Shown here: positions 41,061 through 59,900 of the stretch, piece after piece
How positions within the stretch are numbered: the stretch's first letter is position 1
Layout of the letters: the number at the start of each line of letters is the position of its first letter
Source of the DNA: Tengunoibacter tsumagoiensis
GTDB taxonomy: Bacteria > Chloroflexota > Ktedonobacteria > Ktedonobacterales > Ktedonobacteraceae
Assembly: GCF_003967535.1 (NCBI RefSeq)
Contig: NZ_BIFR01000001.1
Location: forward strand, 113,493 to 177,492
Length of the DNA: 64,000 nt
Direction of reading: 5' to 3'
Notes under the pieces: generated by a model
Told to the model about the DNA's origin: nothing
Databases searched by the model: none
What the model saw: the letters and a program-made list of their open reading frames with translations, nothing else
Position numbers and translations under genes: made by a program

Positions 41061-41157
41061 CAGCGAATGATGCCTCTTGACAACGTATTCCTTTTGTACT
41101 ACTGTACTTTCGTGTTGTCTTGTATGTCACTATTCTAGTTCACTAGCAAGGGATTGC

Positions 41158-43212
41158 ATGGCTGCTGATTTTTTCTGTGATATATGTGGAGCCCACAATC
41201 GATTAGAAGCACAATTCTGTCGTTTCTGTGGACAGCCTTTGCATACTCTTAGCGCTTCGCTCACTTCTACCAAAACTGGCTTGCTGGCACCGCAGGCCAT
41301 GCTCAAACAACGCTATATTGTTCATGGTCAGGCCGGTCGCGGCGGTTTTGGTGCAGTCTATAAAGCTTCCGATACTGAGTTTGGGCATCGACTGGTCGCG
41401 ATTAAAGAGATGAGCCAGAGCACGCTTGAGCCCCAGGAACTGGTGGCTGCTCTCGATACGTTTCGTCATGAGGCTCTCTTGCTCGCCAGCCTTACGCATC
41501 CCAATCTGCCGCGTATCTATGAACAGTTTATGGATAGTGGCCGCGCTTATCTGGTGATGGATTTTATTGAAGGTGAGACGCTTGAACAGCAGCTACAAAA
41601 ATCTGGCACCCAGCGCCTCCCGCTGAGCACAGTCTTCGATATTGCTTTGCAGCTTTGCTCGGTCTTAGAGTATTTGCATACGCGCCAGCCTCCGATTATC
41701 TTCCGTGATCTTAAACCCGCTAATGTGATGCTCACACCAACGGGCCATCTTTTTCTGATTGACTTTGGAATTGCTCGCCACTTTAAGCCTGGTCAGGAAA
41801 AGGATACAATGGCTCTCGGTTCTTCCGGCTATGCTCCCCCCGAGCAGTATGGTAAATCGCAGACGACCTTACGAGCCGATATCTATAGCCTGGGTGCAAC
41901 CCTCCATCAATTGCTTTCCGGCAATGATCCGACCGATTCTCCATTTCATTTTGCCCCCTTACATTTTAGCGATCCTGCGCTCTCTGGATTGGCTCCTTTG
42001 ATTATGAGCATGGTGAGCGTCGATCCCTCGCAACGACCTGCCGATATTCTTACGGTCAGCCAGGAACTACAACGCATTCTTAATGCGATGACGATAAGTA
42101 AGCAAGGAGCTCTCTCAGGATCGTTTTCGCATTCACTTGCTGGTCTCCCTGTCCGAACCCTGCCATCTGAATATCAGACGCCTCGTGGTGCTGATACACA
42201 GTCTATTCCAGCCACACAGACGACTGTGGCAAAGAAACGCACTCAGAAGACGGGAGGTCAGGCGCAGGTCTATCCACAGGCCAATACGCTCTATATCTGC
42301 CTGGGACACGCTAGCCGTATCACGACCGTTGCCTGGTCGCCCGATGGTAAGCTCCTGGCCTCCGCAAGCTATGATAAGACGGCCCAGATCTGGAATGGCG
42401 CAAATGGCTCTCATCAGTTAACCTATAGCGAACACAATGCTCGTATCAACAGTCTTGTCTGGTCTCCTGATAGCCGCCTGGTGGCCACAGCCAGCGATAG
42501 CCGCACTGTCCATCTCTGGGAGGCAGGAACCGGCAAAACGATAGCTATCTATCGTGGTCACCAGGGACCACTGACGAGTGTGGCCTGGTCGCCCGATGGT
42601 AAACTTATAGCATCAGCAGGTGATGACAAGAGTATTCATGTCTGGCAGGCTGATACACAGGAGCTATTGGTAAGCTATACAGAACACACTGATCGCGTCC
42701 AGGCTCTAGCCTGGTCACCAGACGGACGCTATCTGGCCTCAGCTGGACGAGATAAGATTATTAAGATCTGGGAGCCTCGCCCCGTTGCCAAAAAGCGTTC
42801 ATTACTGGCTTTTCTGTTCTCGTCTCCGTTCGAGGAGGGCCCACAAACGCTTAAGGGATATGAAGGTCAGATCTATGCGCTGGCCTGGTCCCCTGATAGC
42901 CGCGAGTTGGCAGCCGCCAGTAGCGACCGACAGGTGCATATCCATAGTCTGCACAAAGGTGCTAAAGGCTTTACGTTGAAGACGAATGATGCAACCATCA
43001 AAAATACTATTGCCTGGTCCTCTGGGGGCAAACATCTGGCACTGGGCGGCAACGATAAACTGGTCCATGTCTGGAATGTTCAGTCTCGCGAGCAATCTTT
43101 CACCTACTTTGGACATGCTGGCTATGTAATGTCTGTAGCATGGTCGCCCGATAATTCACGGATCGCTTCTGCAGGGGTTGACCGCAGCATCCACGTCTGG
43201 CAGGCCGTTTAG
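41158..43212 (+). CDS. Ser/Thr protein kinase with N-terminal zinc ribbon and C-terminal WD40 repeats
   Basis: CDICGAHN...CRFCG ribbon. Kinase motifs [20 protein letters not shown] and DFGIA. About seven WSPDG...IW WD40 repeats. Confidence 0.85.
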
Positions 43213-50425: not shown

Positions 50426-50728
50426 TTGAGCTTCGTAGACAAAACCCTAAAATGCCGTGAGTGTGGAAATGATTTTGTGTTCACCGCCGGTGAACAAGAA
50501 TTTTACCAGCAAAAAGGGCTGTTGAATCAGCCTGGTCGTTGTTCATCATGCCGCGCCAACCGCCGCAACGCGTCTGGTGGATCGAGCAACCGTGAACGCG
50601 CACCACGCGAGATGCACACTGTTATTTGTGCTGAATGTGGTAATGAGACCCAGGTGCCATTCTTACCAAAGAATGATCGCCCCGTCTACTGCAGCCCCTG
50701 CTATGATAAGGTGCGCGCTCGCGCATAA
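50426..50728 (+). CDS. Zinc-ribbon domain protein (zf-trcl-like, CxxC x4)
   Basis: AAGGAGG RBS with a TTG start. KCRECGNDFVFTAGEQEFY...CSSC...CAECG...CSPC. Confidence 0.7.
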   Translation: MSFVDKTLKCRECGNDFVFTAGEQEFYQQKGLLNQPGRCSSCRANRRNASGGSSNRERAPREMHTVICAECGNETQVPFLPKNDRPVYCSPCYDKVRARA

Positions 50729-51370: not shown

Positions 51371-51398
51371 TTGACAGTCATGCTTTGCTATTTATAAT
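51371..51398 (+). promoter_or_regulatory. Consensus sigma-70-type promoter upstream of rel
   Basis: TTGACA, a 16-nt spacer, then TATAAT. A short GGGTAG/CTACCC hairpin plus T7 sits at 51423-51450, before the rel start at 51521. Confidence 0.45.
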
Positions 51399-51520
51399 AG
51401 AGAAGTAACATTTGTTTTGCCGGGGTAGAGTCTACCCTGTCACTTTTTTTATGGAGACCGTCAGGAGAACTGTTCAGGTGCAAAGCAGATGCTACAGCAT
51501 GTAGGCAATGGGGATAAAGA

Positions 51521-54031
51521 ATGGCTACCAATTATGAAAAGGCCGTTGATAAGTCACGCTCCAATAAGCCACTGACAAAGACAACGACTACTCTCGGGGC
51601 AACTCTGGCTCCTTCGCAAATGACGCTCGAAGACTTATTAACCGAGACGAGCATGTATCTAACTCCACAGGATATGGAGAACATTCGTCATGCCTACAAC
51701 CTGGCTAACCAGGCTCATAATGGAGCGGTGCGCAAATCGGGCGAGCCATACATTCAACATCCTCTGGAGGTTGCCCATCTCCTGGCTGTCATGCGCATAG
51801 ATTCCGATGGGATTGTGGCTGCTCTCCTCCATGATGTGGTCGAAGATACTCATTTTTCCCTGGAAGATCTCAATGAGCTCTTTGGTCCCTCTGTTGCCCA
51901 TATTGTGGATGGCGTGACCAAATTTGATGCGCTCGCTAGCAAGCCCGCTACACCAACTGAGGCCGATGTGCTTGCCGATGTGTCTGGTCTGGATAGTCCG
52001 TCTCCCACTTCTGCTCTCGATCACGCTGCCACTTCTTCGCCTGACCATTCTTCTGCTGCCACGCCCGATCATACGCACTATACTCCACCTTCTCTCGTCG
52101 ATAAACGCCGTCAACGAAGCGAAACGGTGCGCAAGATGCTGGTGGCGATGGCCGAAGATCCACGTGTGGTGGTACTGAAGTTGGCCGATCGACTGCACAA
52201 TATGCGCACCCTCAGTGCTATGTCACCCGCCCAACAACAGAATAAATCTCGTGAGACCAGCGAGATCTATGCTCCCCTGGCCCGGCGCCTGGGCATGGCG
52301 CTTGTACAGGCCGATCTGGAAGATCTGGCCTTCGCCTATCTCGAGCCCGATAAATATAATCGCCTCGCTCACCTGGTTGAAGAAGAGGTGAAACGCAGGC
52401 AGCCGTTTGTCGATGAGGTCTGCCGTACCCTACAAGAAGAGATGCAGCGCGCTGGCCTGAAATCAGAGGTGATTGCGTGGCAAAAACACCTGGCAAGCAT
52501 TAATCGTAAATTAGAAGATGTGTTGCTTCAGGATGGCAGTGAGCTTAGCCGCATTCATGACCTTGTCTCTTTCCGCATCCTTGTAGATACCGATTATGAA
52601 TGTTATCTGGCTCTTGGTCATATTCACGCTCTCTGGCGGCCCAAGGATGGCCGCATCAAAGACTTTATCGCTACTCCTAAGCTCAATGGCTACCAATCTC
52701 TCCATACGACGGTCTTCTGCCTCCAAAATCGTCTGGCTGAGATTCAGATTCGCACACACAATATGCAGCGAACAGCTGACTATGGGCTGGCCAGCTATTG
52801 GTACCTGAAAGATCGTTTGGGGAAGGATAACGAAGACACACGAGAAAAAGAGAAGGGCGACCGCAGCTGGCGGCTCTCCTATCGCGAAATGGTGACATGG
52901 ATCGAGCAGCTACGCGAATGGCAGAGCGCTATGCCACAAAGCGCAGATGAGTTTGTTGAAGCGGTCAAAGGGGATATCTTCCAGGAGCAGATCTTTGTCT
53001 TTACTCCCAAAGGCGATGTCAAAGATCTTCCTCGCGGCTCGACTCCTCTCGATATGGCTTATCGTATTCATACCGATATCGGCGATCACTGCGCAGGTGC
53101 GCGCATTATCACGAATACAGAAGATACCGGACGCCTGGTAACACGTCTCGTTCCCCTGGACTATGAGCTCAAAGGGGGCGAGATCGTTGATATTATGACC
53201 AATCGAACGGTTCATCCTACCCACGATTGGCTCTCATTTGCCCGGACGGCTGCAGCAAGGAATAAGATTCGTCGCTATCTTAAGACGTATGAACGTGAGA
53301 TCGATCTTCAGCTTGGCCGTGAACGGCTTGATATGGCCCTGAAGACCTCAGGGCTCACTGGCATTAACGATGAGATTGGTGAGCTCCTCCAGAATCTTTG
53401 TACAGAGGGTCCAGAGGCTCAAGCTACCTTTAAAAAGTATGCCACAAGGGATGATGTCTATATCGCGCTGGGACGCGAAGACCTTTCGATTACTGATCTC
53501 TTAGAGCATCTTCTTCCTTTACTGCCAGGATGCGATAACGATGCACTTGCCAACAATGAGGCCGGACTCTACCAACAGAAAGAGGGCGAAAATCATCGCC
53601 TGATCTCACTGGCTGAGTGTTGCTGCCCCATACCAGGTGATACCATTGTAGGACAGCTTATGCCTGGCAAGGGTATGGTCATCCATCGCAGCGATTGTAC
53701 TGAATTAGCCAATCAGGGCGAGAATGGTACTGGCATGATTGAGGTGAACTGGCTTCAGCTTCATCCTGATCACTATCAAGTTCTTCTCTCGATCGTCGCA
53801 CATGATCGTTCCGGACTCTTACGAGATGTCGCAGCCATTGTCGCTGACGCCAATATCAATATGACTGCAGTCGCCTCAAAGACCAATACGTCTTTACATA
53901 AAGCCGTCATCGTTGTGACACTAGAGATCGCCAATGAAGGCAGTATGATCCTCGATCAGATCGAACGCATCCAACGACGCCTCCGCCAGGTGAAAAATGT
54001 GGTAAGCGTGGAGCGCGCTCTTACCAGATAA
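51521..54031 (+). CDS. rel: Bifunctional (p)ppGpp synthetase/hydrolase (Rel/SpoT homologue) with low-complexity insert
   Basis: Intact HD motif (HDVVEDT). Synthetase motifs (DLVSFRILV, YQSLHTTV), TGS and ACT domains. A Ser/Pro/Thr-rich insert of about 60 aa lies between the hydrolase and synthetase domains. Confidence 0.9.
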   Translation: MATNYEKAVDKSRSNKPLTKTTTTLGATLAPSQMTLEDLLTETSMYLTPQDMENIRHAYNLANQAHNGAVRKSGEPYIQHPLEVAHLLAVMRIDSDGIVAALLHDVVEDTHFSLEDLNELFGPSVAHIVDGVTKFDALASKPATPTEADVLADVSGLDSPSPTSALDHAATSSPDHSSAATPDHTHYTPPSLVDKRRQRSETVRKMLVAMAEDPRVVVLKLADRLHNMRTLSAMSPAQQQNKSRETSEIYAPLARRLGMALVQADLEDLAFAYLEPDKYNRLAHLVEEEVKRRQPFVDEVCRTLQEEMQRAGLKSEVIAWQKHLASINRKLEDVLLQDGSELSRIHDLVSFRILVDTDYECYLALGHIHALWRPKDGRIKDFIATPKLNGYQSLHTTVFCLQNRLAEIQIRTHNMQRTADYGLASYWYLKDRLGKDNEDTREKEKGDRSWRLSYREMVTWIEQLREWQSAMPQSADEFVEAVKGDIFQEQIFVFTPKGDVKDLPRGSTPLDMAYRIHTDIGDHCAGARIITNTEDTGRLVTRLVPLDYELKGGEIVDIMTNRTVHPTHDWLSFARTAAARNKIRRYLKTYEREIDLQLGRERLDMALKTSGLTGINDEIGELLQNLCTEGPEAQATFKKYATRDDVYIALGREDLSITDLLEHLLPLLPGCDNDALANNEAGLYQQKEGENHRLISLAECCCPIPGDTIVGQLMPGKGMVIHRSDCTELANQGENGTGMIEVNWLQLHPDHYQVLLSIVAHDRSGLLRDVAAIVADANINMTAVASKTNTSLHKAVIVVTLEIANEGSMILDQIERIQRRLRQVKNVVSVERALTR

Positions 54032-54667
54032 CATAAGGCTAGAAATCAAGCTCCTCAGGCGAATGATACTCTCTTCTCTATGCATGAGGACACTTACGCA
54101 TAGAGAGAGCTCATTCGCCTTTTGTATAGCCCATCAGGCTATTTTGATCTGGCACAATCCAACAAGATACGGTATGCTTCGTATAGATTCTGTAACATTT
54201 TCCAGAGACTCTCTCTCTCTTACTGGTAGGATTTAACGATTGCTTGCTTCTGCGACACAAATTTGAGAAAGATTTGATCTCTTTTTAATATCCTTATGGT
54301 AAGACTAAGATAGCCTCCAGAAAGTCTTGATCACACATTTGAGAGGACATTGTAAGGCTCTTCGTATAGGATTGAGTGCTAAACTAAGAAAGCAGAGTGC
54401 GTTCACCTGCCAGACACCGGGGTGGTTGGAAGCAAGATGATGGTGCATGACCCTCAAAGGGAACGATATCTTGAACATGAACGTACGGAATAGTACAGGG
54501 AATCTGTCTGTTGGATACTGTGAGTGATCAAAACAGGGAGTGATGGCGTGGGGAGAGGAGGACATGGCTATTGTTCAAGTATAGGCGTTTGATAGAGTGG
54601 ATATTTGTGTAGATAGACACAGAGAGTGGCTCCTATTCAGGATATCCAGAATATGCATAGATGAGTC

Positions 54668-57136
54668 ATGATAAATAGGTCTGTAGAACAACAGTATGTA
54701 GAGCATGCTTGCCCAGATGTAATGAACCAGGTGCTAGAGCTGGTGCGCCCTTATATGGTGCCCGGTGAGATCGAGCAAGTGGTCAAAGCATGCCATCTGG
54801 CGCTAGAGACCTGTGAAGGGGTCCCTGGAACGGCCAATCGGCCTATTCCACCCCTGGAACATGCTCTGGCGGTAACAACTATTCTGGCCCAGATGATGCA
54901 TGTTGATGCCGTTGGGATTACAGCCGCTCTCGTGTTTGAAGCGGTCGATGCAGAGCTCTTACTGATTGAACAGGTGGAGCATGTCTTAGGTGCTCCTACC
55001 GCCCGCATTGTCGGTAGCATGCTGCGCTTAAATATTCTCGAGCGCAAAAAGCAGAATGTGGCAACTGGTGCGATGCTCTCTATCCAGAGCCCCTCACCCA
55101 CAACTACCAAAAAAATTCATGATGAACATTCTCTTGCTCCCGTTCCTCTTGAGAGCAAAAAACCTCGTGTTCGTGAGGCCCTCAGACGCCAACAGGCTGA
55201 AGCCGTCCGCAAGATGTTTGTGGCAATGGCCGATGATCCTCGTGTGGTTCTGCTCAAACTTGCCTATCGCCTGCATGCTATGCGCCGCCTCTGCGTTGAG
55301 CCCCAACCTGCTCCTTCACCAGAGGTTCTAACGATGGCCGAGGAGACTCAGGAGATTTATGCTCCTCTCGCAGGCCGTCTGGGCATGTCTCGCGTTGAAA
55401 GCGAGCTCCAGGATCTCTCGTTCCAGGTGATGGAGCCCGATAAATATAGCTGGGTCCGCAATATCGTCGAGATGGAGAGCAAACAGTGGCGGTCGTATGT
55501 TGACCGTGTCTGCGAGATTCTTCGCCAGGAGATGGCAACTATCGGCGTAAAGGCTGAGGTCTCTGGCCGCGTTAAACACGCCTATAGCTTCTATAAGAAG
55601 ATTATGCGGAGCGCTGGCGATCTGGAAGATTTTGAGGCGGTGAAAAAGGCTGCCGATATCAGTCAGATTCACGATCTGATTGCCTTCCGCATTCTGGTCG
55701 ATACGACGACGGACTGCTATGTCACGCTGGGCCATATCCACGCTCTCTGGCGACCCAAGGATGGCCGCATTAAAGACTTTATCGCCAATCCCAAGCCAAA
55801 TGGCTATAGTGCTTTACATACAACTGTCTTCTGCATGGATGATCAACTGGTAGAGATCCAGATTCGCACCCATGAGATGCACGAGATGGCTGAGTATGGC
55901 GTCGCGATGCACTGGCATTACAAGGATGTCGGGGATCAAGCCTCGGCCTCTGCTAAAGAGCTGCTTACCTGGCTGCGCCAATTGGCCGAATGGCAGCAGG
56001 AATTGCGCACCTCTAATACCAGTGATACCGATTTTGTTGAAGCCATCAAGGATGATATCTTTCAAGAACAGATCTTTGTCTTTACACCCAAAGGCGAGGT
56101 CAAAGATCTGCCGGTCGGTTCAACGCCTTTAGATTTTGCTTACCGTGTCCATTCCGAGGTCGGCGATAAATGTGCTGGTGCTCGCATTATCTCTGAGTCT
56201 GAACATGGTGAAGGCGATCGACTGGTCACACGTATGGTCCCGCTGGATTATGAGCTGAAGAGTGGTGAGGTGGTGGATATTGTTACCAGCCGCAATGCTC
56301 ACCCAACCCGCGATTGGCTCAATTTTGCTCGTACTGCGGCTGCACGCAATAAGATTCGCCGCTATCTCAAGATTCATGAGCGACCGATCAATATCCAGAT
56401 TGGTCGTGATCGACTGGATCGCGAGCTCAAATCGATTACCGAGCGCACGCAAGAGGTAATTAGTGAGGATCTTCAGAACTGGCTGTGTGAGAAACTAAAC
56501 TTTGCTAGCTATGAGGATATCCTGGCGGCTATTGGCTCTGATGATCTGCGACCACGCCTGGTAGTCGTCAAGCTTGTCGAATACTGGGAGAAACGAGACA
56601 ATAAAGAAGAGGTTGTTGAGGCCAATGAGCCTTTAGTGCTCTCTCCTTCTGCAGCAAAGCCTGCTACTGCGCAGATGATGGTGGCCGGGGTAAGTGGTCT
56701 GTTAACCCGCTTAGCAAACTGCTGCTGCCCGTTGCCCGAGGATCCGATTGTTGGCTTTGTCAGTCGTGGCAAAGGCGTCATTGTCCATCGAGCCGACTGC
56801 CGCAATCTGACCAACTACCGCGAACGTGCACAGGAGCGTTTGATTAATGTTAGCTGGCAAGGAATGAGCCAGCCGCGCTACTCAGCCCCTGTGATCATTA
56901 CGGCTCGCGATCGCAACGGCATGATGAGGGATCTCGCTTCGGTTATCTCTGATGCGGGCGCAAATCTGATGTCTGTCAATTTCCGCTCAGATGGCAATGG
57001 CGAGACGGTGCTGGTGAATGCCACAATTGAGGTTGAGAATCTGACCCAATTGCAATGGCTGTTCACACGTCTGGCACGAATCAAGGATGTTCTCCATGTA
57101 GAGCGCGATCTAGGAAAACAGAAAAACACGTTGTAG
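54668..57136 (+). CDS. relA: RelA/SpoT homologue with degenerate hydrolase (HD) domain (RelA-like)
   Basis: Synthetase motifs are conserved (DLIAFRILV, YSALHTTV, IQIRTHEMH). The N-terminal region lacks the His-Asp dyad. TGS and ACT domains are present. Confidence 0.85.
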   Translation: MINRSVEQQYVEHACPDVMNQVLELVRPYMVPGEIEQVVKACHLALETCEGVPGTANRPIPPLEHALAVTTILAQMMHVDAVGITAALVFEAVDAELLLIEQVEHVLGAPTARIVGSMLRLNILERKKQNVATGAMLSIQSPSPTTTKKIHDEHSLAPVPLESKKPRVREALRRQQAEAVRKMFVAMADDPRVVLLKLAYRLHAMRRLCVEPQPAPSPEVLTMAEETQEIYAPLAGRLGMSRVESELQDLSFQVMEPDKYSWVRNIVEMESKQWRSYVDRVCEILRQEMATIGVKAEVSGRVKHAYSFYKKIMRSAGDLEDFEAVKKAADISQIHDLIAFRILVDTTTDCYVTLGHIHALWRPKDGRIKDFIANPKPNGYSALHTTVFCMDDQLVEIQIRTHEMHEMAEYGVAMHWHYKDVGDQASASAKELLTWLRQLAEWQQELRTSNTSDTDFVEAIKDDIFQEQIFVFTPKGEVKDLPVGSTPLDFAYRVHSEVGDKCAGARIISESEHGEGDRLVTRMVPLDYELKSGEVVDIVTSRNAHPTRDWLNFARTAAARNKIRRYLKIHERPINIQIGRDRLDRELKSITERTQEVISEDLQNWLCEKLNFASYEDILAAIGSDDLRPRLVVVKLVEYWEKRDNKEEVVEANEPLVLSPSAAKPATAQMMVAGVSGLLTRLANCCCPLPEDPIVGFVSRGKGVIVHRADCRNLTNYRERAQERLINVSWQGMSQPRYSAPVIITARDRNGMMRDLASVISDAGANLMSVNFRSDGNGETVLVNATIEVENLTQLQWLFTRLARIKDVLHVERDLGKQKNTL

Positions 57137-57146
57137 GCATGCTCCA

Positions 57147-58631
57147 CAAACATAAGTCATCCCGAATTTTGAACGGATGAGCATGCAAAGGAAAACCCTT
57201 CTCAGATACACTGGATGTAGAAACAAACACCAGTTACTAGAAGGGTTTTTCACATGCATTCTCAGTATTCCACAAATGAGCCCGAAACGCAAACGTCGTC
57301 CCAAATGGCAGAGCAGATCCAGAACCACTTAGCCCTTTTTTTAGCGCCCTTTCTCGTCATATTGAATCAGCATCTTGACAAGCGTTTCGTCCAAACCTGC
57401 GCTCAACTGGTAGAAGTGATTATCACCTTCCGTGATCGTTGTCATGCCTTACTTCTCAGTGAGTTAGGTGCCTATCTTGATTCTCCTGCTCACGCTCCTG
57501 CAGGGACAAAACGCATAAGTAACTTGTTACGTTCTCCCAAATGGGATTCATCCCTTCTTGAACGCTTTTTTTGGGACCGCGCCACGCTGTTTGTGAATCA
57601 GGTGAAGGAAAAAGATGAAGATGTTCTTGGTATCTGGGATGAAAGTGTGTTGGAAAAAGCAGAAAGTATCGCCCTTGAAGGATTATGTCCTGTCCGTTCG
57701 AGTAAATCGAGACGGCTCAATCGCATCAAGAAAGGATACTACCGCCCTCCTTCTGCTCCAACGTTTGTCCCAGGAATGCATTGGATTGCGATCTTGCTTT
57801 GTGGGCGGCAAGGTCCTCCTTTGTTAGCTCATATGCGGTGGTGGACCTCACGCGGGAAATATGCAAGCAACGCACGACAAGAAGAACTTTGGTTGCTTCA
57901 ACGGTGTATGCATCTCTGGGGAGCAAACGTGCTTCATATCTTTGATCGTGGCTATGCTGGTGGTCTTTGGGTGACAGAGTGTTTAGAACTCCATCTTCGT
58001 TTTATCTTGCGTTGGACGAAAGATTATCAGCTCTTTGAGCACGGTCATCTGAAGAAAAAAGCGTGGATGATTGCACGAGGAAAAAAATCCTGGTCACAAC
58101 GACACGTGTGGGATGCGCGAACAAACTGCTGGTTTCAAGCGGGAGTGGTCGCTCTTCCTGTGCAGCATCCTGAAGCTCATCACCCATTGTGGCTTGTTGT
58201 CTCGCGCCCAGGCAAGGGCCGCCCACCCTGGTACTTGCTGACCAATGAAGAGATTACGACGGAAGAGGATGCATGGCGAGTTGTTTTTGCCTATGCTCGA
58301 CGGTGGCAAATTGAAATGGCATGGAGGTACAACAAAAGCGAGTTCGGTTTTGAATGCCCCCGGCTGTGGAGTTGGGAAAATCGGGTGAAGCTTCTTTTGA
58401 TAGCGACACTTGCGTATGCCTTTTTATTGACTCTTCTGGATGATAAATACACGTGTTGGCGAGAATGGCTTCTCACCACATGGTGTCATCGGACAGGCAA
58501 AAAGTGCCGTGAAGCCACGGCACCCTTATATCGTTTACGAACGGCACTCAGCCGTTTATGGTTAGCCTTCCCGCCTCCTTTGATGGGCTTGTTACAAACT
58601 CATCTTGAAAATTCGGGATGACTTATGTTTG
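57147..58631 (+). mobile_element. IS4-superfamily insertion sequence (about 1.49 kb)
   Basis: 27-bp terminal inverted repeats with one mismatch: CAAACATAAGTCATCCCGAATTTTGAA at 57147-57173, and its reverse complement at 58605-58631. A single DDE transposase ORF lies between them. Confidence 0.8.
57254..58621 (+). CDS. IS4-family DDE transposase
   Basis: DDE residues (IWDES, HIFDRGYAG, RRWQIEMAWRYNK). Y-x2-R-x3-E-x6-K (YREK) signature. Confidence 0.85.
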   Translation: MHSQYSTNEPETQTSSQMAEQIQNHLALFLAPFLVILNQHLDKRFVQTCAQLVEVIITFRDRCHALLLSELGAYLDSPAHAPAGTKRISNLLRSPKWDSSLLERFFWDRATLFVNQVKEKDEDVLGIWDESVLEKAESIALEGLCPVRSSKSRRLNRIKKGYYRPPSAPTFVPGMHWIAILLCGRQGPPLLAHMRWWTSRGKYASNARQEELWLLQRCMHLWGANVLHIFDRGYAGGLWVTECLELHLRFILRWTKDYQLFEHGHLKKKAWMIARGKKSWSQRHVWDARTNCWFQAGVVALPVQHPEAHHPLWLVVSRPGKGRPPWYLLTNEEITTEEDAWRVVFAYARRWQIEMAWRYNKSEFGFECPRLWSWENRVKLLLIATLAYAFLLTLLDDKYTCWREWLLTTWCHRTGKKCREATAPLYRLRTALSRLWLAFPPPLMGLLQTHLENSG

Positions 58632-58667: not shown

Positions 58668-59900
58668 TTAGCCGCGCAGACGTTCAAGCACAGGTGGTTG
58701 ACGTAACTTTGCCAGTGCACCGGCTTCAATCTGTCGAACACGTTCGCGTGTAATCCCCAGTTCACGACCGACCTGCTCTAAGGGATGAGCCTGGCCATTG
58801 CCAAGCCCAAAACGAAGTTGCAGGACAAGCTGTTCACGAGGAGTAAGCACCGACTCTAACACGCGCTGTACCTCATCCTTCAAAGTCTGGGTGGTTGCCA
58901 GCTCTTCAGGGGAGGCTGATTCTGTGTCGGCCAGGACATCGCCTAATTCCTGTTCTTCATCCTCGCCAACTGGAAGCTCAAGCGAGACAGGAGCGCCAGG
59001 AGCCGATTGAAGCTCAACCATGCGAATGGGGTCCAGGCCAGTAGCTTCAGCCAATTCCTGCTCCGTAGGTTCGCGCCCAAGCTCCTGCAAGAGACGCTGA
59101 CGCTCACGGCGAATGCGATTTAAGGCAGTATTCACATAAACGGGGAGACGGATCGTGCGACCTTTATCGGCAACGGCGCGGCTGATGGCCTGACGAATCC
59201 ACCAGGTCGCATGAGTAGAGAAGCGATGACCACGCCGCCAGTCATAGCGTTGAACGGCGCGAATCAAGCCAATATTACCCTCTTGGATCAGATCCAGCAA
59301 AGTTAACCCACGACCAACATAGCGCTTGGCAATGCTTACGACGAGGCGCAGATTCGCAAGAATAAACTGCTTCATCGCATCACGATCGCCCGCCTCAATG
59401 CCTTTCGCCAGTTCGATCTCGCGCTCATGGGTAATCATGGGCACGCGTCCAATCTCACGAAGGTATGTCATCACCGCATCGGACTCTCCTGCGTCAGCAG
59501 CATTAACGGAGTTTTCGTCCTGGTCCTCCGAGCGGCGGCGGCGCATGGGTGCTGTACGGCGAGCAGCATGATCAACCTCATTAGAGATCGTGGGGAGGGT
59601 AAGAATGGAATCCACTTCTAGGTCGGCAGGATGAGGTGTATCTTCATGAACCTCAGTAATATCTTCGATCTCAAGCGGACCTGTCTCCAGGTCGAGAGGA
59701 CCCGTCTCAAGCGAGTTAAGATCCTCGTCTAGCTCAGGTTCGTCTTCACTATCGCCTGCCTTGTTATCATCATCAGATGTATAATCAAGATCTTTTGCAA
59801 GAAGCTGCTCAACGATGTCGAACTGTTTCGCAAGATCTGGTGTTTCAGTTTTATGTAACGTAAGCGTTGTTCCCGTCATGGCACGCTTGCTGTCTATCAT
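58668..59900 (-). CDS. rpoD: Primary RNA polymerase sigma factor
   Basis: DLIQEGNIGLIRAVQRYDWRRGHRFSTHATWWIRQAI (region 2) and region 4 HTH. Acidic N-terminal region 1. Confidence 0.9.
   Translation of the reverse strand: MIDSKRAMTGTTLTLHKTETPDLAKQFDIVEQLLAKDLDYTSDDDNKAGDSEDEPELDEDLNSLETGPLDLETGPLEIEDITEVHEDTPHPADLEVDSILTLPTISNEVDHAARRTAPMRRRRSEDQDENSVNAADAGESDAVMTYLREIGRVPMITHEREIELAKGIEAGDRDAMKQFILANLRLVVSIAKRYVGRGLTLLDLIQEGNIGLIRAVQRYDWRRGHRFSTHATWWIRQAISRAVADKGRTIRLPVYVNTALNRIRRERQRLLQELGREPTEQELAEATGLDPIRMVELQSAPGAPVSLELPVGEDEEQELGDVLADTESASPEELATTQTLKDEVQRVLESVLTPREQLVLQLRFGLGNGQAHPLEQVGRELGITRERVRQIEAGALAKLRQPPVLERLRG

Follow-up and report, generated by a model that had tools for sequence, protein, structure and literature searches.

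The division of labour between RelA and SpoT is the textbook example of subfunctionalisation among bacterial stress-signalling enzymes. In Escherichia coli, the RelA[hS]/SpoT[HS] pair consists of two long RelA/SpoT homologues (RSHs) that originated from a duplication of rel: one combines a pseudo-hydrolase (HD) domain with an intact synthetase (SYNTH) domain, the other supplies the hydrolase, and both keep the C-terminal TGS-helical-zinc-finger (ZFD)-ACT/RRM region. The functions of pseudo-HD and pseudo-SYNTH domains as regulatory domains, and the conformational control exerted by the Core and the α6-α7 region, are under active study. Atkinson et al. described the RelA/SpoT duplication in Beta- and Gammaproteobacteria, with 'complete' subfunctionalisation in Moraxellaceae (PMC3153485). 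Their survey covered Chloroflexi, Dehalococcoidetes and Thermomicrobia, with one Rel[HS] apiece, and included no Ktedonobacteria (PMC3153485). The subject here is a pair of adjacent long RSH genes, copy 1 and copy 2, from Tengunoibacter tsumagoiensis, which exact protein sequences in the NCBI databases assign to the class Ktedonobacteria of the phylum Chloroflexota. Members of the Ktedonobacteria live in soil, form mycelia and spores, and have very large genomes; to our knowledge, stringent control has not been studied in them. The pair lies in a 64,000-nucleotide stretch of DNA (contig NZ_BIFR01000001.1, positions 113,493 to 177,492), referred to below as the window. The two genes encode sister paralogues with the anatomy of long RSHs, conserved residue states, a conserved tandem arrangement and reciprocal asymmetry in their rates of divergence. 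Based on its residues, copy 1, which is hydrolase-competent with an altered ATP site in its synthetase, is proposed to be a SpoT-like (p)ppGpp hydrolase; copy 2, a pseudo-hydrolase with an intact synthetase, is proposed to be a RelA-like monofunctional (p)ppGpp synthetase. The pair probably arose by tandem duplication followed by the specialisation of the two copies in opposite directions, which would independently repeat the RelA/SpoT division of labour.

Catalytic sites of two tandem long RSHs

An earlier note on this DNA, written from the sequence alone, had reported two open reading frames (ORFs) of 836 and 822 amino acids, both with TGS and ACT domains, in what looked like a non-proteobacterial genome. 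The ORFs are present on the same strand at exactly these lengths (Table 1), Pfam finds TGS and ACT_4 in each product, and the host is a member of the Ktedonobacteria. Together with HD_4, RelA_SpoT and RelA_AH_RIS, these domains make up the full long-RSH architecture in both copies. Against TIGR00691 (spoT_relA), copy 1 scores 602.8 bits and copy 2 scores 550.2 bits, above the cut-off of 499.2, and both proteins are homologous to solved structures of Rel, RelA and SpoT at E < 1e-100. The two copies are 43% identical to each other over their full length (616 bits). The best match of copy 1 in the Protein Data Bank (PDB) is Rel of Mycobacterium smegmatis (8fr8), and that of copy 2 is E. coli RelA (5iqr, 430 bits), followed by M. 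smegmatis Rel with 407 bits. Copy 1 scores higher on the SpoT equivalog model of NCBIfam (NF008303, 503 bits) and copy 2 on the RelA model (NF008124, 474 bits); however, both values are far under the equivalog cut-offs of 947 and 728 bits, respectively. In databases, the two proteins are named only 'RelA/SpoT family protein' or '(p)ppGpp synthetase', so annotation pipelines miss the functional split. The start of copy 2 has been placed differently in GenBank (GCE10267.1, at Met19, nucleotide 54722, 18 codons later, giving 804 residues) and in RefSeq (WP_126577882.1, at 54668, 822 residues). The longer version is favoured because orthologues in many genomes align from residue 1.

The pair is conserved throughout the class. 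A scan of one genome per species with copy 2 as the query identified 230 relatives, and the locus counts given here rest on the best 80 of them. All of these 80 belong to Ktedonobacteria, including Dictyobacter, Ktedonobacter, Ktedonospora, Ktedonosporobacter, Thermogemmatispora and many metagenome-assembled genomes, and the best 120 protein matches to copy 2 contain only orthologues from Ktedonobacteria. A copy 1 orthologue is located directly upstream of copy 2 on the same strand in 73/73 loci with at least 2.7 kb of upstream flank, at a distance of ~6 to 940 nucleotides (median ~190). Orthologues are 59-73% identical, and paralogues 41-53%. The copy 2 ORF is intact and full-length in 78 genomes spanning the class.

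The residue numbering used below is that of Rel, read from an alignment to Bacillus subtilis Rel (6yxa), and the residues have been mapped on 70 copy 1 and 78 copy 2 orthologues. The HD domain of copy 1 matches Pfam HD (PF01966) and contains the motif LHDVVEDT. It has all eight residues that we take, from the structural work on RelSeq (Hogg et al. 2004), to be Mn2+ ligands and catalytic groups of the hydrolase: R44, H53, H77, D78, E81, D82, D144 and N148 correspond to R71, H80, H104, D105, E108, D109, D223 and N227 of copy 1, and are conserved in 70/70 orthologues. By contrast, copy 2 reads VFEAVDAE in the region of the dyad, lacks a match to PF01966, and has G54, H65, F90, E91, D94, A95, Y200 and A204 at the same eight positions, so that seven catalytic or metal-binding residues are replaced and the equivalent of H53 alone survives. 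These replacements in turn hardly vary among the orthologues: E91, D94 and Y200 occur in 78/78 and F90 in 72/78. Therefore, the domain is a conserved pseudo-HD and not a product of random decay. The earlier note had read the dyad as kept in the first protein and lost in the second, and had named the scoring of aligned motifs as a check; the alignment bears out both parts, as copy 2 does not retain the hydrolase catalytic residues.

The synthetase site of copy 2 is intact. G300, R301, K303, K311, D336, R341, R367-x-K369-D370, K376, N378, Y380, H384, E396 and Q398 are the equivalents of G240, R241, K243, K251, D264, R269, R295-x-K297-D298, K304, N306, Y308, H312, E323 and Q325, and are present in 75-78 of the 78 orthologues. 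The charged motif R367-I-K369-D370 is of the RxKD type (RIKD, not ExDD); R367 and D370 are found in 78/78 orthologues and K369 in 75, with arginine in the remaining 3. The histidine of the TGS domain equivalent to H432 of E. coli RelA and the cysteines and histidines of the ZFD are conserved in both copies, and in 78/78 orthologues of copy 2.

The first SYNTH motif of copy 1 differs from the consensus GRxKHxYSIYxKM. It reads AWQKHLASINRKL (A319-W320-Q-K-H-L-A-S-I-N-R-K-L), which corresponds to the substitutions G240A, R241W, Y246A and Y249N. Among the orthologues of copy 1, position 241 is occupied by tryptophan in 62/70, serine in 2 and arginine in 6; position 240 is alanine in 56/70 and glycine in none; Y246 is replaced by alanine or serine, and Y249 mostly by asparagine or glutamine. 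By contrast, R241 is found in 141 and G240 in 124 of 142 outgroup long RSHs. These outgroups comprise E. coli RelA and SpoT and 140 full-length sequences, which an exhaustive search retrieved from 1.84 billion representatives of clusters at 50% identity. The equivalent of R241 in SAS1, R46, binds the ATP analogue AMP-CPP and is a valine in the synthetase-inactive AtRSH1 (PMC6881373). The motifs of a bifunctional Rel are thus not all intact in copy 1, in which the HD site is complete but SYNTH carries G240A and R241W. The earlier statement that synthetase motifs are conserved in both proteins holds for copy 2 but not for the first motif of copy 1.

Conservation and relative rates of evolution differ between the copies by domain. 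In the N-terminal part of HD, the mean pairwise identity of orthologues is 78.5% for copy 1 and 64.1% for copy 2, and 43 and 14 columns, respectively, are at least 95% conserved. The corresponding identities are 56.4% and 66.5% in the AH/RIS region, and 71.6% and 55.6% in the ACT domain. Relative rates have been determined as mean distances to 119 HD-intact outgroup long RSHs. The distances of copy 1 and copy 2 are 0.84 and 2.27 in the N-terminal part of HD, 1.03 and 0.88 in SYNTH, and 1.77 and 1.50 in AH/RIS with the ZFD; in each region, the 95% confidence interval of the difference excludes zero. The rates are reciprocal: copy 2 has diverged in HD, and copy 1 in SYNTH and the helical and zinc-finger region. 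This is the pattern expected if the ancestral role of a ribosome-coupled synthetase stayed with copy 2 and the hydrolase role with copy 1.

Probable specialisation and origin of the two copies

An ancestral bifunctional rel was probably duplicated in tandem before the radiation of Ktedonobacteria, and the two copies would then have specialised in opposite directions. The enzymatic activities and the ribosome dependence given here are inferred. Copy 2, in which the metal-binding and catalytic residues of the hydrolase are gone, would be a monofunctional (p)ppGpp synthetase whose pseudo-HD survives as a conserved, probably regulatory domain. Because its synthetase site, TGS histidine, zinc-finger cysteines and histidines, and helical region are intact, copy 2 most likely acts as a starvation sensor activated by the ribosome together with deacylated tRNA; sensing of the ribosome and tRNA by the copies is plausible. 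Copy 1 would supply the sole hydrolase activity of the pair and reset the levels of (p)ppGpp. Its SYNTH domain is retained under strong constraint; however, synthesis is probably weak or altered, as in SpoT, because the near-invariant ATP-contacting arginine is absent (G240A/R241W).

A more advanced stage of such a split may be represented by a deep metagenomic contig, L083, in which an HD-dead gene of the same type as the close relative P0124 lies 5 nucleotides downstream of a gene for a 695-residue long RSH. The HD domain of the upstream protein is intact (HPLAV, LHDVVEDT, ADRLHN), but its SYNTH domain is badly eroded, with PHVKH in place of GRxKH, GDFITYT in place of HDLxxFR and DIHIRT in place of EIQIRT. 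Judged by these motifs, copy 1 of the L083 lineage has moved much further towards a hydrolase-only enzyme. The occurrence of the same pair in L083 indicates that the pair predates the sampled Ktedonobacteria.

The strongest alternative, although considered unlikely, is that copy 1 has kept full bifunctionality and behaves as the lone Rel of other Chloroflexota does, with copy 2 as an extra, synthetase-only paralogue, which would be an asymmetric specialisation of the kind seen in E. coli RelA[hS] and SpoT[HS]. The earlier note had labelled copy 1 in this way, but bifunctionality is doubtful because the near-invariant ATP-site Arg241 is replaced. Several observations weigh against a weakened synthetase in copy 1. 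The remaining SYNTH residues (K243, K251, D264, R269, RxKD, K304, N306, Y308, H312, E323 and Q325) are kept in at least 67/70 orthologues, six orthologues retain Arg241, and the domain is as constrained as that of copy 2, with mean pairwise orthologue identities of 79.8% and 78.3%. The tryptophan at position 241 could in principle still stack on adenine, which is our own proposal. The replacement of G240 by alanine or serine alone is tolerated in active RSH4 enzymes of diatoms and does not abolish synthesis (PMC6881373), and asymmetric specialisation is the commonest outcome after RelA/SpoT duplication (Atkinson et al., PMC3153485). The proven hydrolase-only long RSH of Acinetobacter baumannii, SpoT_Ab, has lost D272 and Q347, residues of the D264 and Q325 type (PMC9974481). 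By contrast, copy 1 of T. tsumagoiensis keeps D347, E407 and Q409, the equivalents of D264, E323 and Q325, and is without this hydrolase-only signature. Because the other SYNTH residues are kept, unlike in proven hydrolase-only long RSHs, copy 1 may still synthesise. However, a residue found in 141/142 outgroups has become tryptophan in 62/70 copy 1 orthologues, and Y246 and Y249 are replaced too; the divergence of copy 1 significantly exceeds that of copy 2 in SYNTH and the helical and zinc-finger region; and the deep relative upstream in L083 has lost SYNTH catalytic residues. A hydrolase with a weakened or altered synthetase is therefore rated above a fully bifunctional Rel for copy 1, although not by a wide margin.

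Two related ideas are held with somewhat less credence still. The SYNTH domain of copy 1 might have been repurposed, either for another pyrophosphate donor or acceptor or for nucleotide-sensing allosteric control of the hydrolase. This is suggested by the replacement of the ATP-contacting arginine by a conserved tryptophan while the other catalytic residues stay under strong purifying selection throughout the class. Alternatively, the paralogues might form a physically coupled synthetase-hydrolase pair, an idea prompted by the invariant tandem order of the genes, including their 5-nucleotide spacing in the deep lineage.

The origin of the pair by duplication of a resident rel is indicated by phylogeny. 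The alignment of 180 sequences contains 17 pairs spanning the class, the 142 outgroups and four close relatives (P0121, P0123, P0124 and P0154). The orthologues of copy 1 and of copy 2 are each monophyletic in neighbour-joining (NJ) trees, and copy 1 groups as the sister of copy 2, not with E. coli SpoT. A clade made up of copy 1, copy 2 and no sequences other than the four close relatives is recovered in 100/100 bootstraps of the full-length alignment (696 columns), and the same value is obtained without the HD domain (525 columns), under both distance corrections. A group of copy 2 with RelA-like proteins that excludes copy 1 is found in 0/100 bootstraps, whether the alignment is full-length or without HD. 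Closest among the outgroups are P0128 and P0248, HD-intact long RSHs that occur singly, without another copy in their vicinity. Two reservations apply to these trees: they are distance-based, with Kimura and gamma-type corrections, and not maximum-likelihood or Bayesian, and NJ trees built from HD alone place copy 2 with RelA-like proteins in 76/100 bootstraps. The latter grouping is read as a long-branch attraction of degenerate domains because removal of the other HD-dead sequences restores the clade of paralogues (50/100) and because copy 2 and RelA differ in their pseudo-HD character states, as detailed below.

Two insertions link the copies to each other. The earlier note had described a Ser/Pro/Thr/His-rich insert of about 60 residues as lying between the hydrolase and synthetase domains of the first protein. 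It is actually part of the HD domain, where it separates the GVTKF helix from the helix that leads to D144/N148, and it is not restricted to copy 1, since copy 2 has an equivalent at residues 122-179. The linker at this position is 67 residues long in copy 1, 58 in copy 2 and 30-67 in their orthologues, while its modal length in the 142 outgroups is 15 residues. The loop of copy 1 is poorly conserved, with 38.6% identity. Its junction is placed between positions 113 and 119 in SpoT_Ab (7qpr), and between positions 111 and 116 in Rel of B. subtilis (6yxa). The insert thus adjoins R124 of the α6-α7 motif, which is regulatory according to Tamman et al. (PMC9974481), and is most likely an expanded α6-α7 loop. 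The second insertion, of ~10 residues, is in the TGS domain. Its columns are filled in at least 80% of the orthologues of each copy and in no more than 10% of the 142 outgroups; P0123, P0124, P0154 and both proteins of the L083 pair have it too. The long HD loop and the TGS insertion are rare changes common to both paralogues and their deep relatives, and each occurs in at most 10% of the outgroups.

It is very improbable that copy 2 is a proteobacterial relA, or a chimera with a RelA-derived pseudo-HD, that landed beside a resident rel. Copy 2 does have E. coli RelA as its best PDB match and scores higher with the RelA than with the SpoT model, its HD domain alone is attracted to RelA-like sequences, and an aromatic residue occupies the position of H77 in both copy 2 and RelA. 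However, copy 2 is closer to copy 1 than to any RelA, the C-terminal part of its HD domain is 64.5% identical to that of copy 1, and both insertions shared by the copies are absent from RelA. The character states of the HD domain also differ: D144 is replaced by tyrosine in copy 2 but by glutamate in 12/14 RelA-like sequences, and the deep copy-2-like proteins P0123 and P0124 still have D144, with P0124 also retaining H77. Therefore, the decay of HD arose inside the copy 2 clade. Horizontal transfer of a proteobacterial relA has been rejected on the basis of the model scores (474 bits, below the RelA cut-off of 728), the RIKD motif, the shared insertions, the bootstraps and the HD character states. 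The unanimous bootstrap support for the clade, the absence of any for copy 2 with RelA and the shared TGS insertion instead identify the pair as a lineage-specific duplication. This answers the phylogenetic check named in the earlier note, and upholds its suggestion of an independent, non-proteobacterial duplication. Equally improbable is that copy 2 is a non-functional duplicate decaying into a pseudogene, its HD degenerating under relaxed selection: the N-terminal part of its HD is indeed less conserved than that of copy 1, but the ORF is full-length in 78 genomes, the catalytic or ligand residues of SYNTH, TGS and ZFD persist in 75-78 of 78 orthologues, the residues substituted in the pseudo-HD are fixed, and outside HD copy 2 is nearer than copy 1 to the HD-intact outgroups.

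Features, gene neighbourhood and expression elements

Table 1 Features of the copy 1-copy 2 locus and its surroundings in the window
Feature	Position	Strand	Details
Ser/Thr protein kinase-WD40 ORF	41077-43212	+	711 residues
Zinc-finger protein	50426-50728	+	100 residues; zf_Tbcl, zf_Tbcl_2
Promoter of copy 1, sigma-70 type	51371-51398	+	TTGACA-16 nt-TATAAT; 12/12 consensus match
Conserved stretch 5' of copy 1 ATG	51480-51520	+	~40 nt
Copy 1, long RSH	51521-54031	+	836 residues; GCE10266.1 / WP_126577881.1; ORF, domains, TIGR00691, PDB match, residue table
Copy 1 HD domain	51692-52297	+	Residues 58-259; Pfam HD_4 and HD match; catalytic residues intact
Copy 1 low-complexity HD loop	51926-52126	+	Residues 136-202; 67-residue linker, poorly conserved
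Copy 1 SYNTH domain	52418-52813	+	Residues 300-431; A319-W320 (nt 52475-52480) replace G240-R241
Copy 1 TGS insertion	53108-53137	+	Residues 530-539, after GARI; column occupancy
Hairpin and U-run, probable intrinsic terminator	54057-54124	+	26 nt past copy 1 stop
Copy 2, long RSH	54668-57136	+	822 residues; WP_126577882.1; ORF, domains, TIGR00691, PDB match, residue table
Copy 2 pseudo-HD domain	54791-55387	+	Residues 42-240; degenerate residues; no PF01966 match
Copy 2 long HD loop	55031-55204	+	Residues 122-179; 58-residue linker
Copy 2 SYNTH domain	55565-55927	+	Residues 300-420; Pfam RelA_SpoT 123 bits; catalytic residues intact
Copy 2 TGS insertion (same as in copy 1)	56189-56224	+	Residues 508-519; column occupancy
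DDE_Tnp_1 (IS4-type) transposase	57254-58621	+	455 residues
Sigma-70 factor	58668-59900	-	Regions 1.2 to 4

The conserved gene order around the pair is lplA and tgt, a treble-clef zinc-finger protein, copy 1, copy 2 and a convergent sigma-70 gene. The small protein with two treble-clef zinc fingers is encoded upstream of copy 1 in 62/80 loci, with 85-90% identity. The sigma-70 factor, which has an acidic low-complexity N-terminal extension of ~140 residues, is the convergent neighbour of copy 2 in 61/80 loci, with 83-86% identity. In the window, the transposase gene separates copy 2 from the sigma-70 gene; since it is found in 0/80 related loci, the insertion is specific to the T. tsumagoiensis genome. 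Further upstream in the window, an ORF encodes a Ser/Thr protein kinase domain fused to a WD40 β-propeller.

Copy-1-like proteins with the motif 'VWQKH' occur among the deepest relatives (P0154 and P0272). P0272, an HD-intact protein of 717 residues (Logan SRR31070030, L085:770-2923), is followed by a gene for a short-chain dehydrogenase, and no copy 2 follows on the 5.6-kb contig. Either the tandem does not extend to all of the deepest relatives, or copy 2 has been lost or moved there.

The hexamers of the copy 1 promoter and the bases flanking them are conserved in ~10 relatives of the Tengunoibacter/Dictyobacter group, whereas their surroundings vary. The stretch directly in front of the start codon of copy 1 is conserved in genomes of the Dictyobacter group, with the consensus GCAGATGGTACAGCATGTAGTAGCAGGTATTAGAGAATG, and the rest of the leader is variable; this stretch could be a translation-initiation or regulatory element. 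A candidate attenuator between the promoter and the start codon (hairpin 51421-51439 with a T-run) was dropped as not conserved in relatives.

The hairpin downstream of copy 1 has a minimum free energy of -42.1 kcal/mol (z = -5.1), and 0/200 shuffled sequences fold as well. Together with the U-run, it suggests that the two genes are transcribed separately in T. tsumagoiensis. However, comparable hairpins with T-runs are found in only 7/57 long spacers of relatives, so a general terminator between the genes was rejected, and the operon structure differs by lineage. Because 14/71 pairs are less than 60 nucleotides apart and spacer hairpins are few, co-transcription is likely in many lineages. 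As a candidate for a conserved promoter of copy 2, relatives share the element 'ACGTATAC' ~100-130 nucleotides upstream, of which the window has no clear counterpart. A scan of the whole window against Rfam gave no matches at the gathering thresholds.

Comparison with known systems

Full-text literature searches returned no description of the Ktedonobacteria pair, which thus appears undescribed so far, although the proteins may be listed by Jimmy et al. 2020, whose supplementary classification spans 24,072 genomes. The earlier note had described duplications of the RelA/SpoT type as classically confined to Beta- and Gammaproteobacteria. The pair is notable as an independent case; however, second long RSHs are already documented elsewhere, as RshA, RshB and plant RSH1-4 (PMC3153485), and the novelty is therefore smaller than the note implied.

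The pair differs from RelA and SpoT of E. coli in several respects besides its independent origin in a separate clade. The E. coli genes are ~0.9 Mb apart, whereas those of Ktedonobacteria adjoin. RelA has ExDD and the substitution D144E, and copy 2 has RxKD and D144Y. SpoT keeps the Gly-Arg of the first SYNTH motif, in place of which copy 1 has Ala-Trp. Neither RelA nor SpoT has the TGS insertion or the expanded HD loop. The charge reversal from RxKD to ExDD in RelA is attributed to Sajish et al. 2007 as cited in PMC3153485. ExDD is not exclusive to HD-dead proteins, as 21 of the 142 outgroups with an intact H-D dyad carry it; conversely, five HD-degenerate long RSHs among these outgroups keep RxKD.

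The closest likeness in the direction of change is to RelA[hS]/SpoT[Hs] of Moraxellaceae, exemplified by A. baumannii SpoT (7QPR), in which specialisation is likewise reciprocal and a compromised SYNTH domain persists in a structural or regulatory role (PMC3153485, PMC9974481). However, SpoT_Ab has lost several base-binding residues in addition to the catalytic D272 and Q347, whereas copy 1 has lost only G240 and R241, plus Y246 and Y249; erosion of SYNTH comparable to that of SpoT_Ab is seen only in the deep relative upstream in L083. The α6-α7 loop of SpoT_Ab is shortened (PMC9974481), but that of the Ktedonobacteria proteins is greatly lengthened.

RshA of Actinobacteria and RshB of Bacteroidia are also lineage-specific second long RSHs from outside Beta- and Gammaproteobacteria (PMC3153485), and the HD domain of RshB has diverged in a RelA-like manner (PMC3153485). 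They belong to other phyla, are of independent origin and are listed as [HS] by Atkinson et al.; neither a reciprocal change in a partner nor a conserved tandem is reported for them in the sources compared. In plants and algae, hydrolysis and synthesis are split among the long-RSH paralogues RSH1 and RSH2/3/CRSH, and RSH1 is substituted at the same two SYNTH positions as copy 1, with serine for G240 and valine for the equivalent of R241 (PMC6881373). However, these are eukaryotic plastid enzymes with other C-terminal architectures, and AtRSH1 has lost many further ATP-binding residues, which copy 1 has not.

Another tandem of long RSHs is located in assembly GCA_964650005.1 of an uncultivated bacterium (CAZYPZ010000008.1, L091:5001-11550), where three overlapping or abutting genes are followed by dtd and uvrC. 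In the protein from gene A (P0195), the HD site is dead and SYNTH intact; in that from gene B, both sites are dead; and in that from gene C, only SYNTH is dead and HD is intact. The array resembles the Ktedonobacteria pair in its tandem arrangement and reciprocal loss of catalytic motifs, but differs from it in having three genes, only 25-37% identity to the pair, no TGS insertion and a fully eroded SYNTH in the hydrolase copy. Together with the five HD-degenerate long RSHs that keep RxKD, it indicates that independent splits are evidently recurrent.

A class-wide replicate in Chloroflexota constitutes a natural convergent experiment on the RelA/SpoT split. The changes that recur are the loss of the Mn2+ ligands, the aromatic residue at the position of H77, the retention of the pseudo-domain and the faster evolution of the helical and zinc-finger region in the hydrolase copy. 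Others do not recur: ExDD is not needed, D144 is replaced by tyrosine and not glutamate, and the HD loop is expanded and not shortened. Copy 1 of Ktedonobacteria, changed only around the ATP-site arginine, and its counterpart in L083, with SYNTH fully eroded, form a graded series that could reveal the order of steps leading from a bifunctional Rel to a dedicated hydrolase. The Ktedonobacteria pair is an independent, ancient and class-wide instance of a known evolutionary pattern, set apart from the described systems by some distinctive traits: the obligate tandem, RxKD in the synthetase-only copy, G240A/R241W in the hydrolase copy, and the insertions in TGS and the HD loop that both copies share.

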